Origin: a virus
Taxonomy: Duplodnaviria > Heunggongvirae > Uroviricota > Caudoviricetes
Reading direction: 5' to 3' (one strand)
Length of the DNA: 5,567 bases
IMG/VR virus record: IMGVR_UViG_2698536379_000014
Positions within the stretch are counted from its first letter, which is position 1, and every line of letters starts with the position of its first letter. Positions 2,691-5,567 of this stretch are shown here, in pieces. The translations under genes and the position numbers were made by a program. The notes under the pieces were generated by a model. The model saw only the letters and a list, made by a program, of their open reading frames with translations. It had not been told where the DNA came from and searched no databases.

Positions 2691-3560
2691 ATGACCACTA
2701 TTACCAAAGAACGTATTGAATTGTTCATTAAAAATCCGCTTGAAAACGGGCTTACCCGTGGTGAACAAATGGAACTGGCACGGATTGCGCTGGCATCGCT
2801 GGAAGCAGAGCCGGTGGCAAAGATTATAGCTCATTACCCATTAGGGGTTGACGTAGGCAAACAAAAATTCGTACAGGCCATTAGAGAGCTTCCTGACTTT
2901 GGCGGATATCTATTTGCCGCCCCTCCAGCGCCGATAGTGCCGGAAGAAATGTATTGGCAGGATGCGCCAGTTGAAGGCAGCAGCAAAGCGACTGCATACG
3001 CTACAGGCTGGAACGATTGCCGCGAAGCCATGCTTCAGTCCGGAAACTTTCGGGAAAATAAAGATTCGTCAACCAATAATTTTCGGAAAATCCCGGAAGC
3101 GTCAACCAGCTCTCCGGTAACTCCGGCTCTTCTGCCTGGTGGTTTCACCATTGAGGAGGCGAAGGAATTACATGAAGACCTGGTACGCAGCCACATAAGC
3201 AAGGCCTTAAGTGGCGAAAAGATGAAAAAGAAAGATCGCGATGCTGATTTGCGCTGGATTCATGGCGTTATAGTTCAGGCAGCGTGGTTTGTAAAAGCAT
3301 CACTGGAGCAGAATGCACTATCGGGCAACTATCCGGTAACTCCGGATAGTTGGATAAGCTGTAGTGAGCGAATGCCGGATACCAAAACAGCCGTTCTTGT
3401 TGCCAGGGATTTTGGCAGGAAAGGTGACTGGCGAATGAAATGGGCGACTTACATCCCGGGGCATCCTGACGCTAATGATGGGTGGATAATACCTGGTGCG
3501 TCGTGGATACCATCACACTGGATGCCTCTACCAGAACCGCCGCAGGAGGTGCGCCAATGA
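2691..3560 (+). CDS. Phage protein with DUF551-like C-terminal domain
   Basis: 289-aa ORF with AGGAG SD at 2680-2684. The C-terminus (DSWISCSERMPDTKTAVLVARDFGRKGDWRMKWATYIPGHPDANDGWIIPGASWIPSHWMPLPEPP) matches my recollection of the conserved DUF551 signature found in lambdoid phage proteins (ending W-MPLPEPP). The N-terminal two thirds are unrecognised. Stop TGA 3558-3560 overlaps the next ATG (ATGA). Confidence 0.75.
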   Translation: MTTITKERIELFIKNPLENGLTRGEQMELARIALASLEAEPVAKIIAHYPLGVDVGKQKFVQAIRELPDFGGYLFAAPPAPIVPEEMYWQDAPVEGSSKATAYATGWNDCREAMLQSGNFRENKDSSTNNFRKIPEASTSSPVTPALLPGGFTIEEAKELHEDLVRSHISKALSGEKMKKKDRDADLRWIHGVIVQAAWFVKASLEQNALSGNYPVTPDSWISCSERMPDTKTAVLVARDFGRKGDWRMKWATYIPGHPDANDGWIIPGASWIPSHWMPLPEPPQEVRQ

Positions 3561-3640
3561 ACTGGCCTGAAGCATTTGCAATTACAGGCGTTGCTATGGC
3601 TATCGCTTTTTTAGTATATGTTATTTGTCGGTGGGGGTAA
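3557..3640 (+). CDS. Candidate small hydrophobic peptide (27 aa), single predicted TM helix
   Basis: ATG 3557-3559 overlaps the upstream stop (ATGA), with AGGAGG at 3544-3549 (7-nt spacing). Translation MNWPEAFAITGVAMAIAFLVYVICRWG, stop TAA 3638-3640. Too short for the ORF track. Confidence 0.35.
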   Translation: MNWPEAFAITGVAMAIAFLVYVICRWG

Positions 3641-3675
3641 AAACGTTCGCCGGGATTAACACCAAAGGAGGGAAT

Positions 3676-3780
3676 ATGTCGGATGATATATCACTGGCAA
3701 TGGAAGGTGCGCTGGCTGTTGTTGCTGTTGTGGGCGTTTACTGCCTGGTTGTGTTTTTGATGGATCGACTAGGGAACTGA
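3676..3780 (+). CDS. Candidate small hydrophobic peptide (34 aa), single predicted TM helix
   Basis: ATG 3676 with AGGAGG at 3666-3671 (4-nt spacing). Translation MSDDISLAMEGALAVVAVVGVYCLVVFLMDRLGN, stop TGA 3778-3780. Too short for the ORF track. Confidence 0.4.
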   Translation: MSDDISLAMEGALAVVAVVGVYCLVVFLMDRLGN

Positions 3781-3788
3781 ATTCATTA

Positions 3789-3810
3789 CGATATGGGAAT
3801 TCCCATATCG
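3789..3810. promoter_or_regulatory. Perfect 22-bp palindrome (candidate operator or RNA hairpin)
   Basis: CGATATGGGAATTCCCATATCG is an exact inverted repeat, located 9 nt after the small ORF stop and about 12 nt upstream of the predicted hok -35. No U-tract follows on either strand. Confidence 0.4.
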
Positions 3811-3821
3811 GGTAAAAACGG

Positions 3822-3858
3822 TTTGCGGTAAAGCGAGAGTTAAGTAGAATTGCTGCGG
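3822..3858 (+). promoter_or_regulatory. Predicted sigma70 promoter and start site of the hok mRNA
   Basis: -35 TTTGCG/TTGCGG (3822-3828), 16-17 bp spacer, -10 TAGAAT (3845-3850). The predicted start near 3857 coincides with the beginning of the 5' element that is complementary to the mRNA 3' end. Confidence 0.4.
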
Positions 3859-3904
3859 GTGCTTGAGGCTATCTGCCTCAGGCATGAACACCAAAAGGCA
3901 GATA

Positions 3905-3980
3905 GAGAAAAGCCCCAGTTAACATTACGCGTCCTGCAAGACGCTTAACATTAATCTGAGGCCCAATCTATGTCTCACAA
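3905..3980 (-). ncRNA. sok: Predicted Sok-like antisense RNA (coordinates approximate)
   Basis: Minus-strand promoter candidate: -35 TTGCCT (plus coords 4013-4008), 17-bp spacer, -10 TAACCT (3990-3985), giving a start near 3978 and a transcript antisense to the mok SD/start (3957-3972). This matches the known hok/sok layout. The 3' end and terminator could not be defined from sequence. Confidence 0.3.
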
Positions 3981-4182
3981 ATGTAGGTTAGCCTCTTACG
4001 TGCCGAAAGGCAAGGAGAAGCAGGCTATGAAGCAGCAAAAGGCGATGTTAATCGCCCTGATCGTCATCTGTTTAACCGTCATAGTGACGGCACTGGTAAC
4101 GAGGAAAGACCTCTGCGAGGTACGAATCCGAACCGGCCAGACGGAGGTCGCTGTCTTCACAGCTTACGAACCTGAGGAGTAA
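3970..4182 (+). CDS. mok: mok-like overlapping reading frame (70 codons) in the hok leader
   Basis: ATG 3970 with SD TGAGG at 3957-3961 (8-nt spacing), 57 nt upstream of and in frame with the hok ATG, ending at the same stop. Its size matches the ~70-codon mok frames described for hok loci. Whether it is translated as an extended Hok or only serves coupling cannot be told from sequence. Confidence 0.4.
   Translation: MSHKCRLASYVPKGKEKQAMKQQKAMLIALIVICLTVIVTALVTRKDLCEVRIRTGQTEVAVFTAYEPEE
4027..4182 (+). CDS. hok: Hok/Gef-family type I toxin (HokD/RelF-like membrane peptide, 51 aa)
   Basis: Translation MKQQKAMLIALIVICLTVIVTALVTRKDLCEVRIRTGQTEVAVFTAYEPEE. It has the family hallmarks: N-terminal TM helix, LVTRKxLCE motif and conserved C-terminal TGQTEVAVFTAYE. 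From memory it is identical or near-identical to E. coli HokD (RelF). SD AAGGAG 4012-4017 (9-nt spacing); stop TAA 4180-4182. Confidence 0.9.
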   Translation: MKQQKAMLIALIVICLTVIVTALVTRKDLCEVRIRTGQTEVAVFTAYEPEE

Positions 4183-4251
4183 GAGACCAGGCGGGGGAGA
4201 AATCCCTCGCCACCGCTGATGTGTCAGGCATCCTCAACGCACCCGCACTTA

Positions 4252-4277
4252 ACCCGCTTCGGCGGGTTTTGTTTTTT
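4252..4277 (+). terminator. Rho-independent terminator of the hok transcript
   Basis: ACCCGC-UUCG-GCGGGU: 6-bp GC-rich stem with a UUCG tetraloop (4252-4267), followed by TTTTGTTTTTT (4267-4277). Confidence 0.8.
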
Positions 4278-4349
4278 CTGGTCGTTCTGGTTTACAATCC
4301 ATCCGTCAGCCTGAACAACTGGCACCTGCTGCGCCAGCAGAGAAAACAG

Positions 4350-4628
4350 ATGGCGCACGATACCAAATTTTACAATTCGGATAACTCTGCCGCCCCTGCC
4401 AGCAGGCACGGGCGGCGTTCTCATGCATTCAAATCTGACTGGTATCAGCACGACCCCTGCACCGAAGAACAGGCTGAATGGCTGATTCAGTGTTACCGCA
4501 GGCGCGGATACGAGATTAAGAAAGCCCTCAGCCTCGACTACCGTCACTGGATAATCTCCGTCAGGCTTCCTTACTCCGAACGCCCACCGCGTCCGTCCCG
4601 CACATTCCAGCAACGGATCTGGAGGTAA
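4350..4628 (+). CDS. Hypothetical protein (92 aa), in the position of rem in Qin-type prophages
   Basis: ATG at 4350 (translation MAHDTKFYNSDNSAAPASRHGRRSHAFKSDWYQHDPCTEEQAEWLIQCYRRRGYEIKK…), stop TAA 4626-4628. Weak SD. The longer track ORF from 4221 would run through the hok terminator, so the internal start is preferred. The rem assignment is by synteny from memory only. Confidence 0.5.
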   Translation: MAHDTKFYNSDNSAAPASRHGRRSHAFKSDWYQHDPCTEEQAEWLIQCYRRRGYEIKKALSLDYRHWIISVRLPYSERPPRPSRTFQQRIWR

Positions 4629-4629
4629 C

Positions 4630-5567
4630 GTGCGGGTATTACTTCGACCTGTTCTGGTACCGGAACTCGGGCTGGTGGCCCTTAAGCCAGGTCGTGAATC
4701 CATGCAGGTATTTCACAATACCCGGGTACTGGTGGAGCCGGAACCGAAAAGCATGCGTAATCTGCCGTCCGGGGTCGTTCCTGCCGTTCGCCAGCCGCTG
4801 GTGGAAGACAAAACATTGCTGCCATTTTTCAGCGACGAACGAGTGATTCGTGCTGCTGGTGGTGCTGGTGCATTGTCTGACTGGCTGTTGCGCCATATTA
4901 AATCCTGCCAGTGGCCACACGGCGATTATCACCACAGCGAAACTGTCATTCACCGTTATGGTACCGGCGCAATGGTGTTGTGCTGGCACTGCGACAACCA
5001 GTTGCGTGACCAGACCTCCGAATCACTCGGGCAACTTGCTCACCAAAATTTGTCAGCATGGATGATTGACGTCATACGCCATGCAATGAATGGCACGCAG
5101 GAGCGGGAATTATCTCTGGGTGAATTATCCTGGTGGGCGGTCTGCAATCAGGTGGCGGATGCGCTACCAGAGGCAGCATTACGTCGTTCTCTGGGGTTAC
5201 GTGCGGAAAAAATCCGCTCGGTGTACCGCGAAAGCGACATCATACCGGGAGAACAGACAGCCACCAGCATCCTGAAACAGCGCACAAAAAATCTTGCGCC
5301 GCTGCCTCACGCCCACCAGCAAAACCCGCCACAGGAAAAGACGGTGGTAAGCATTGCCGTTGATCCGGAGTCTCCGGAATCCTTCATGAAACGACCTAAA
5401 CGTCGCCGCTGGGTAAATGAGAAATACACACGCTGGGTAAAGACACAGCCGTGTGCGTGTTGTGGTAAGCCAGCGGACGATCCTCATCATCTGATTGGTC
5501 ATGGTCAGGGCGGAATGGGAACAAAATCCCACGATATTTTCACGCTACCGCTGTGTCGGGAGCATCA
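4630..5567 (+). CDS. DUF968/YdfU-like protein with two HNH-like Cys/His motifs (partial, continues beyond window)
   Basis: Frame open from GTG 4630 (GGAGG SD at 4621-4625; alternative ATG at 4702) to the window end with no stop. Motif 1: CQWPHGDYHHSETVIHRYGTGAMVLCWHCDNQLRD. Motif 2: CACCGKPADDPHHLIGHGQGGMGTKSHDIFTLPLCREH. Both look HNH-nuclease-like. The track missed it because it lacks a stop within the window. Confidence 0.75.
   Translation, partial: MRVLLRPVLVPELGLVALKPGRESMQVFHNTRVLVEPEPKSMRNLPSGVVPAVRQPLVEDKTLLPFFSDERVIRAAGGAGALSDWLLRHIKSCQWPHGDYHHSETVIHRYGTGAMVLCWHCDNQLRDQTSESLGQLAHQNLSAWMIDVIRHAMNGTQERELSLGELSWWAVCNQVADALPEAALRRSLGLRAEKIRSVYRESDIIPGEQTATSILKQRTKNLAPLPHAHQQNPPQEKTVVSIAVDPESPESFMKRPKRRRWVNEKYTRWVKTQPCACCGKPADDPHHLIGHGQGGMGTKSHDIFTLPLCREH

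Follow-up and report, generated by a model that had tools for sequence, protein, structure and literature searches.

Two small predicted membrane-peptide genes behind a mosaic DUF551 gene in the early region of a lambdoid prophage

The locus examined here raises the question of whether two very short open reading frames (ORFs), placed between a longer gene and a toxin locus, are genes in their own right, and what their products might do. It lies in a 5,567-nt stretch of tailed-phage DNA (IMG/VR record IMGVR_UViG_2698536379_000014), referred to in full as the window. Between positions 2691 and 3780 the window carries a 289-aa ORF with a DUF551 domain, a 27-codon ORF (ORF1) and a 34-codon ORF (ORF2); a real hok/sok locus follows 77 nt downstream of ORF2. 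An earlier note on this DNA had described ORF1 and ORF2 as tightly coupled genes for single-transmembrane peptides, and had pointed to roles of such peptides as toxins, exclusion factors or regulators, which for these two is speculative. The coupled genes are borne out by conservation, by an excess of synonymous change and, for ORF2, by ribosome profiling: both are real protein-coding genes for single-pass hydrophobic peptides. The overall reading, to which a probability of roughly 0.6 is given, is that a real mosaic 289-aa gene is followed by two small membrane-peptide genes whose products would work by packing against other transmembrane helices.

ORF1, a coupled unit found behind unrelated genes

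ORF1 (3557..3640, plus strand) encodes a predicted 27-aa single-pass membrane peptide, MNWPEAFAITGVAMAIAFLVYVICRWG, of a phage family designated here MxWPEAF-TM. Its ATG overlaps the TGA stop of the 289-aa gene (ATGA at 3557-3560); this and all other coordinates of the earlier note are correct. The near-consensus Shine-Dalgarno sequences that it reported are likewise present before both small ORFs. That of ORF1, AGGAGGT (3544..3550, plus strand), is placed 6 nt before the ATG, within the last codons of the upstream gene (Q-E-V). The hydrophobic stretch of the peptide comprises 17 residues (7-23) with a Kyte-Doolittle value of 2.48. A run of five G residues precedes the ORF1 stop codon (TGG GGG TAA, 3632-3640). 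In E. coli O26:H11 11368, a G-to-A change at window position 3634 (4035 in that locus, L002) converts Trp26 to a stop and leaves a 25-aa peptide; this allele occurs once among viral contigs.

A sensitive DNA search of E. coli genomes recovered the ORF1 region at 72-79% identity, separate from ORF2. Ten such loci contain an ORF of 25-31 aa that runs from M-x-W-P-E-A-F through a helix to C-R-W-G. The genes upstream of it encode various DUF551 proteins, two unrelated hypothetical proteins and a dATPase-DUF551 fusion, and in one locus the upstream gene belongs to a 93-kb E. coli plasmid with genes of phage type; the overlap between upstream stop and ORF1 start is found in nearly all of these loci. 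A tblastn search extended the family to 99 phage records, including 933W, VT2-Sakai, BP-4795, Min27, the lytic Vequintavirinae phage Av-05 and Klebsiella phages, where ORF1 occupies a syntenic site adjoining xis/int. In 933W it lies, without annotation, between L0139 and sokW/hokW.

A degenerate DNA pattern consisting of ATGA plus W-P-E-A-F, which fixes residues 1-7, was searched for in viral contigs and gave at least 120 matches. Among the matches listed, 117 of 120 open an ORF of 20-34 aa, 110 of these ORFs are hydrophobic, and 115 of 120 matches are preceded by a Shine-Dalgarno core (GGAG, GAGG or AGGA, 4-16 nt before the ATG), whatever the upstream gene. Matches in a 596-Gb genome collection, mostly random and from unrelated phyla, served as the negative control; there, the corresponding counts among the matches listed were 23/120 for a 20-34 aa ORF, 2/120 for hydrophobicity and 13/120 for the Shine-Dalgarno core. 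In at least three unrelated classes of upstream gene, the final codons contain the ORF1 Shine-Dalgarno sequence; the encoded C-terminal ends are ...PEPPQEV[NR]Q, ...GLISVEDVLR and ...NDLKNIEQEVNR. Divergent members, on contigs of 40-66% G+C, retain MxWPEAF and the hydrophobic helix and differ in the remainder. Family membership was defined by a length of 22-34 aa, an M-x-W-P-[ET]-A-F start, one hydrophobic helix, a Shine-Dalgarno sequence inside the upstream gene and an overlapping stop and start, and ORF1 of the window has every one of these features.

ORF1 is a portable unit, made of a Shine-Dalgarno sequence, an ATGA overlap and a 27-codon ORF, that stands behind unrelated genes in many phages. 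What follows it varies as well: a hok mRNA start lies within 600 nt in 49 of 107 loci, 17 of the 107 have ORF2, and in many other loci a terminator hairpin comes directly after ORF1. What looked like a natural fusion of ORF1 within a 121-aa 'DUF551' cluster turned out, once the sequences were read, to be a clustering artefact.

The pattern of substitution points to a translated product. The earlier note had proposed conservation as ORFs, Ka/Ks and ribosome profiling as checks on both small genes, and the first two came out in their favour. For ORF1, the frame is open with conserved residues at 65-73% nucleotide identity, also in unrelated gene contexts. Codons 8-27, on which the search pattern sets no constraint, were compared among 58 distinct DNA sequences; the proportions of synonymous and nonsynonymous differences (pS 0.39, pN 0.16) give a dN/dS ratio (omega) of 0.32 in frame, against 0.67 and 1.87 in the other two frames, and third codon positions are the most variable. 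Between ORF1 of the window and a distant clade, about 12 of 16 synonymous sites are changed and 11 of 44 nonsynonymous sites (p = 7e-4). P4, A6, F7, G11 and A15 are invariant in a pattern-independent alignment, and G11, A13, A15, A17, Y21, C24 and W26 are near-invariant in 39 distinct peptides. Together with I23, these conserved residues include two overlapping small-xxx-small motifs (G11xxxA15 and A13xxxA17) set between two tryptophans.

Despite this reach, the family has been largely overlooked. Searches of Pfam, NCBIfam, PHROG and PADLOC with the small ORFs returned no family, only noise, and literature searches with the peptide motif and the RefSeq accessions found nothing. ORF1 is without annotation in the RefSeq records examined and in the GenBank records of 933W and Av-05; a few GenBank submitters list it as a hypothetical protein. 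At 84 nt, it falls under the length cut-offs of common gene finders, which accounts for its being missed. The ORF1 family is undescribed in the libraries and literature searched, though its kind, a small phage or bacterial membrane protein, is known.

ORF2, a repeat-bounded and translated cassette

ORF2 (3676..3780, plus strand; RefSeq WP_001278454.1) encodes a predicted 34-aa single-pass membrane peptide, MSDDISLAMEGALAVVAVVGVYCLVVFLMDRLGN, whose hydrophobic stretch covers 17 residues (13-29, Kyte-Doolittle 2.94). Its Shine-Dalgarno sequence AAGGAGG (3665..3671, plus strand), 4 nt before the ATG, is kept in 11 of 11 aligned alleles. The gene sits in a 175-bp segment flanked by an 11-nt perfect direct repeat, GGGTAAAAACG (plus strand; left copy 3635..3645, right copy 3810-3820). 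In loci without ORF2 (933W, L007 and L008), the end of ORF1 is joined to the hok promoter exactly at this repeat. ORF2 is therefore a 175-bp insertion/deletion module between ORF1 and the hok promoter, restricted to E. coli prophages and narrower in distribution than ORF1. About 675 E. coli genomes contain ORF2 DNA, with identities of 87-100%. A DNA search showed ORF2 to be absent from a phage genome collection, and a tblastn search against phages gave no match, possibly because of the low-complexity filter.

Selection on the ORF2 frame is also apparent. Eleven alleles have no stop or frameshift, and every amino-acid change among them is conservative. Synonymous and nonsynonymous differences from the window number 6/3, 7/3 and 8/4 on about 25 and 65 sites (p 0.003-0.012), a three- to six-fold synonymous excess per site. 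Omega is 0.38 in the ORF2 frame, and the out-of-frame values for ORF1 and ORF2 range from 0.55 to 1.9. The frame is also kept in a divergent homologue (DNA identity about 67%, protein identity about 52%) that has its own AGGAGGT and a GTG start. Three loci carry it at the corresponding position, just before the hok promoter, and two of these lack ORF1. The conserved core is the C-terminal YCL.V.LMDRL. In two E. coli genomes (loci L136 1130-1640 and L137 1160-1640), some 400-500 nt of unannotated sequence precede the divergent homologue and hokD; the two share about 360 nt of this upstream sequence, which stands in place of ORF1.

Nine nucleotides after the ORF2 stop lies a perfect 22-nt palindrome, CGATATGGGAA|TTCCCATATCG (3789..3810, no strand assigned), with a central EcoRI site. 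No T-run follows it. The palindrome is lineage-specific, being missing from the divergent ORF2 lineage, and could serve to bind a protein or form a hairpin in RNA.

Published ribosome profiling supports translation of ORF2. XECs145, a translated intergenic short ORF (sORF) of E. coli O157:H7 Sakai (Huecker et al. 2017, PMC5597208, S2 Table), includes the ORF2 allele of Sakai, whose single difference from ORF2 of the window is V16I. In lysogeny broth (LB), XECs145 had 79 reads per kilobase per million mapped reads (RPKM) for RNA and 346 for footprints, a ribosome coverage value (RCV) of 4.35 and a coverage of 0.99; its RCV was 1.14 in brain heart infusion (BHI), and short annotated genes averaged 1.55 in LB (PMC5597208). 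A translated sORF was defined in that study by an RPKM of at least 1, a coverage of at least 0.5, an RCV of at least 0.25 and an ORF of at least 30 aa, and the published data place the Sakai allele of ORF2 above these thresholds. The profiling check of the earlier note is thus answered for ORF2, and ORF1 falls below the 30-aa minimum. XECs145 was also predicted to be an inner-membrane protein (PMC5597208). ORF2 is, then, already annotated as a hypothetical protein and reported as translated, with a narrow family reach.

The mosaic 289-aa DUF551 gene and the surrounding prophage

The gene to which ORF1 is coupled (2691..3560, plus strand) is an intact ORF for a 289-aa mosaic protein of the Eaa type. 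The DUF551-type C-terminus described in the earlier note is confirmed by Pfam PF04448 (69.1 bits against a cut-off of 22, E 6e-19), which matches aa 220-285 (nt 3348-3545) over the complete model (1-68 of 68). The view that the N-terminal two thirds are unrecognised did not hold. Pfam has nothing for this part, but its modules match the PHROG profiles phrog_60, 5117, 3323, 660, 14306 and 12449, all of unknown function, and there are thousands of homologues. The identical protein, or alleles 98-100% identical to it, is present on thousands of E. coli contigs under the labels 'DUF551 domain-containing protein' or 'Eaa', and a search of 1.84 billion representatives returned 2231 relatives. The protein is an already known DUF551 member, and nothing in its N-terminus is new.

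The breakpoints of matches to these relatives recur near aa 27, 45, 73, 86, 146 and 207, and some relatives span the full length at 40-64% identity with a shared architecture. This indicates a stable mosaic, in which shuffled phage modules are connected by linkers of low complexity and a portable DUF551 domain comes last, and no fresh fusion. A recent accidental joining of modules, or a pseudogene as the RefSeq annotation suggests, was considered and is rejected in view of the full-length relatives and of the intact frame in the two RefSeq genomes examined.

An AlphaFold model agrees with this anatomy, with separate domains connected by flexible linkers of low confidence. A helical N-terminus and a confident small module around a GWNDCREAML helix are followed by a disordered linker (aa 121-150), a helical hairpin and the beta-rich DUF551 domain, which has a predicted local distance difference test score (pLDDT) of about 96. 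Searching the PDB with the model, by fold and by sequence, gave nothing significant (best E 0.97). The disordered linker, where the pLDDT falls below 50 at aa 128-143, includes the product of a 33-nt tandem repeat (3045..3108, plus strand) of two copies, 71% identical (NFRENKDSSTN / NFRKIPEASTS).

The 'PVTP' repeats seen in the earlier note are part of a longer element: a 20-nt direct DNA repeat, adjoining the tandem repeat, with one copy at 3107..3126 (plus strand; S-S-P-V-T-P) and a 90% identical copy at 3326-3345 (N-Y-P-V-T-P), just before the DUF551 domain. A '[ST]PVTP.GWISCS' linker precedes DUF551 in other family members as well. Two single-contig variants of the protein, P0062 (389 aa) and P0063 (395 aa), have internal duplications of about 100 aa, which could be real recombination products or assembly artefacts; in P0063, both ends of the duplicated block adjoin the PVTP linker repeat. 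Because the linker is shared before DUF551 and borders the P0063 duplication, it is likely to serve as a recombination joint between modules.

Automated annotation has obscured the gene. In E. coli O55:H7 CB9615, the RefSeq Prokaryotic Genome Annotation Pipeline (PGAP) splits it into a pseudogene (2691-3107) and a 112-aa coding sequence (3222-3560), and in O26 11368 it is listed as three fragments, the frame nevertheless being open. The frame spans 4092-4961 of the first locus (L001) and 3092-3961 of the second (L002), and other genomes list a normal coding sequence. As neither of these RefSeq genomes has a break in the frame, the pseudogene call is an annotation artefact.

The lambdoid prophage of CB9615 is 100% identical to the window over 1.7 kb around the locus, and 182 complete E. 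coli genomes carry near-identical copies of this region. Repressor, cro and ydaT-like genes are followed by a replication gene with iterons, DUF977, small accessory genes, DUF4014 and an 87-aa protein, and then by the 289-aa ORF, ORF1, ORF2, hokD/sok, a 92-aa protein, DUF968, RusA and an antiterminator. Its place between the replication genes and the DUF968, RusA and antiterminator genes identifies the segment as the far end of the prophage's early accessory ('nin-like') region. Elsewhere in the window, the replication gene (94-1059, a putative initiator) contains five tandem 23-nt repeats, CATCAGGTCAAAATG..., at 438-553, spaced 23-24 nt apart, an arrangement that matches the origin iterons of lambdoid O-type genes. 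At 1522-1788 and 1725-1901, a pair of ORFs overlap in different frames; PGAP lists them as an 'incomplete' pseudogene, and they look like a frameshifted accessory gene.

Possible roles and known counterparts

In the proposed mechanism, ribosomes terminating on the upstream gene would restart at the overlapping ATG, so that production of ORF1 would keep pace with that of the early genes. Both peptides would insert into the inner membrane. ORF1 would probably have its N-terminus outside and its C-terminus inside, with Trp3 and Trp26 at the two membrane interfaces and Arg25 facing the cytoplasm. Its small-residue face (G11, A13, A15 and A17, with Y21, I23 and C24) would pack against another transmembrane helix, either in further copies of itself or in a host or phage membrane protein. 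Such a peptide would resemble small regulatory membrane proteins more than the toxin of a toxin-antitoxin pair.

The main competitor holds that ORF1 and ORF2 resemble type I toxins or holins and depolarise or permeabilise the membrane, serving abortive infection, exclusion or maintenance alongside Hok. Both are small hydrophobic peptides (27 and 34 aa) with a single hydrophobic helix, and they lie in a prophage beside a bona fide hok/sok, with hok close to ORF1 in nearly half of the loci counted above. The three membrane-active peptides that the earlier note placed within 650 bp do fit that spacing, the distance from ORF1 start to hok stop being 626 bp. Small-xxx-small motifs occur in pore-forming peptides, and the two motifs of ORF1 would suit self-association or oligomeric pores.

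In the hok/sok locus itself, the putative hok promoter was read from the sequence relative to the Rfam start at 3857 and was not listed by a stringent promoter scan; it would comprise TTTGCG, a 17-nt spacer and TAGAAT (3822..3850, plus strand), 6 nt before the 5' end of the hok mRNA. The mRNA leader and sok antisense region (3857..4032, plus strand) match Rfam RF01794 at 121.7 bits (gathering threshold 59, E 2.7e-28). A mok frame opens at 3970 (plus strand) and overlaps hokD, as called by PGAP (4027-4182); the product of 3970-4182 matches Pfam HOK_GEF at E 3e-23. A terminator-like hairpin stands at 4251-4268, after hokD. A weak Rfam match to isrK (4191-4272; 27 bits against a gathering threshold of 50, E 0.007) covers the 3' end of the hok mRNA and is most likely just the hok terminator.

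The hallmarks of a type I module were looked for around ORF1 and ORF2. Within 3557-3856, no antisense or divergent RNA antitoxin was found by Rfam on either strand up to an E of 1, a search that covers described families. Minus-strand promoter-like sites occur at chance frequency (2 against 1.0 +/- 1.0 expected). One of these chance-level sites (3700-3673, minus strand; TTGCCA, a 16-nt spacer and CATATT) has a -10 element that overlaps the ORF2 start codon, and an RNA starting there would be antisense to the ORF2 ribosome-binding site and to ORF1. The scan listed no plus-strand promoter-like site in 3300-3860, and folding of 3530-3860 gave no telling structure (z = -2.1 against shuffled sequences). 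In place of a silenced mRNA with a long structured leader, ORF1 is coupled to a varying upstream gene and ORF2 begins 35 nt after ORF1; both Shine-Dalgarno sequences are strong, and ORF2 is translated in LB. Neither peptide matches Hok/Gef (Pfam PF01848), or any other toxin family of Pfam, NCBIfam or PADLOC. The location is not that of lysis genes (holin, antiholin or spanin), which stand beside an endolysin in the late cassette, as both genes lie in the early region and, elsewhere, near xis/int.

Three further points weigh against a toxin. The efficient translation of ORF2 in growing, uninduced lysogens (RCV 4.35) argues against a potent one. A lytic phage carries ORF1, where a maintenance toxin would serve little purpose, and more than half of the ORF1 copies have no hok nearby. 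Helix packing is preferred because of these three points, and because no antisense RNA family, own promoter, silencing leader or toxin-family match was found; a toxin-like or holin-like role is unlikely, and the adjacent hok/sok would be a separate classical type I module.

An effect of ORF1 translation in cis, by protecting the mRNA end or by tuning read-through into hok or the terminator, would make the peptide itself irrelevant. This would suit the tight coupling to the upstream stop and the observation that no further ORF often separates ORF1 from a terminator hairpin or the hok promoter. However, it leaves the conservation of the amino-acid sequence, with invariant residues, a low dN and a helix kept in distant members, without a reason, and is improbable.

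The same conservation bears on the idea that the small ORFs are non-functional and that the DNA is kept through neighbouring modules or as an RNA or DNA element, such as an upstream control region of hok or an operon terminator. Short ORFs open by chance are fairly common, conservation of the ORF2 DNA does not exceed that of its flanks, disruptions occur in several copies of ORF1, and the region folds somewhat better than shuffled sequence. Against this stand the frame-specific omega values of both ORFs, the variability of third codon positions, the retention of Shine-Dalgarno sequence and start in unrelated contexts, the preservation of motif, hydrophobicity and length in divergent members while the DNA differs, the gap between the viral matches and the chance control, and the ribosome footprints over ORF2. 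This explanation is quite improbable.

A query with the concatenated ORF1 and ORF2 proteins returned 26 proteins, and four clusters of 70-74 aa, each from 1-2 contigs, are exact ORF1-linker-ORF2 fusions, which could be homopolymer errors, real mutants or slippage products. That the two ORFs are the halves of a 74-aa two-helix protein, split by a frameshift or joined by programmed -1 slippage at the G5 run, is very improbable even with these fusions and with an ORF2 frame open back to 3625, overlapping the end of ORF1, because ORF1 lacks ORF2 in about 84% of sampled loci and ORF2 also occurs without ORF1, ORF2 has its own strong Shine-Dalgarno sequence and ATG, the fusions are rare beside more than 1000 contigs with separate genes and fall at an error-prone homopolymer run, and a canonical slippery heptamer is absent.

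Several observations weigh against the helix-packing interpretation or against the evidence for coding. Disrupted ORF1 copies exist (L006 has a nonsense codon, L007 a frameshift and O26 11368 the W26stop allele), and ORF1 is therefore dispensable in resident prophages. The pairwise dN/dS sums are not independent, as the viral sample was drawn by pattern and contains many close relatives, and the synonymous excess of ORF2 is not significant against its most divergent homologue (p = 0.14). ORF1 lies outside the ribosome-profiling study because at least 30 aa were required there (PMC5597208); its translation and membrane insertion are predicted from sequence. XECs145 was published as a 54-aa ORF with a start upstream, inside the 3' end of ORF1 (PMC5597208); the conserved Shine-Dalgarno sequence and ATG favour the 34-aa product, and the published start is probably wrong. 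Read assignment for XECs145 is also uncertain, since the region is multi-copy in Sakai. Finally, the packing mechanism and topology are predicted from sequence patterns.

A bolder extension of the helix-packing interpretation is held only tentatively: ORF1 might represent an unrecognised, wide family of early phage membrane effectors that bind a host inner-membrane protein and thereby block superinfection or rewire the envelope. The G/A-rich helix face would then bind a target such as a transporter, a route of DNA entry, a protease or the divisome. With fewer than 30 codons, the gene for such a factor of host takeover or exclusion would have escaped notice in 933W and other Shiga toxin (Stx) phages.

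The significance of the locus is moderate, being that of a testable small-protein family in medically important phages, with no mechanistic surprise demonstrated. Few mobile elements of pathogenic E. coli have been studied as thoroughly as Stx-converting and other lambdoid phages, and a conserved 27-codon gene has nonetheless stayed unannotated in 933W, VT2-Sakai, BP-4795 and hundreds of prophages. The 30-codon cut-off is a systematic blind spot of prokaryotic annotation, and the PGAP artefact is exposed by the same locus. The contributions of this analysis are a family signature, evidence of purifying selection and a modular anatomy, with a coupled ORF1 unit and a repeat-bounded ORF2 cassette. 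Both ORFs are cheap targets for small-protein work on superinfection exclusion, envelope remodelling and interplay with Hok.

Comparison with known systems places each of the three genes. In published work, DUF551 is a portable domain of unknown function that is present in Ea22 variant 2, YfdS and a phage dATP/dGTP pyrophosphohydrolase. The 289-aa protein shares with lambdoid Eaa, Ea22-V2 and YfdS (PF04448) a full-length DUF551 and a mosaic, portable-domain architecture; it differs from Ea22 and YfdS in its set of N-terminal modules (aa 1-210), and K-12 yfdS, unlike the 289-aa gene, is not followed by ORF1. XECs145 contains the ORF2 sequence but for V16I, is predicted to be in the inner membrane and is footprinted, and was published without function, context or family analysis.

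Type I toxins such as Hok/Gef, Ldr, TisB, Ibs, ShoB and Zor are also small hydrophobic peptides of prophages. ORF1 and ORF2 differ from them in that no antisense RNA, mok-like leader ORF, fold-back mRNA or sequence similarity was found, and in the efficient translation of ORF2 during growth. Annotation often passes over the small regulatory proteins of the bacterial inner membrane; AcrZ, MgtS, MgrB, CydX and KdpF have 25-50 aa and one transmembrane helix that packs against a larger membrane protein. ORF1 and ORF2 differ from these in being phage-borne and without Pfam or NCBIfam similarity, and ORF1 in its coupling to a variable upstream gene, but they are alike in size and in their single predicted transmembrane helix.

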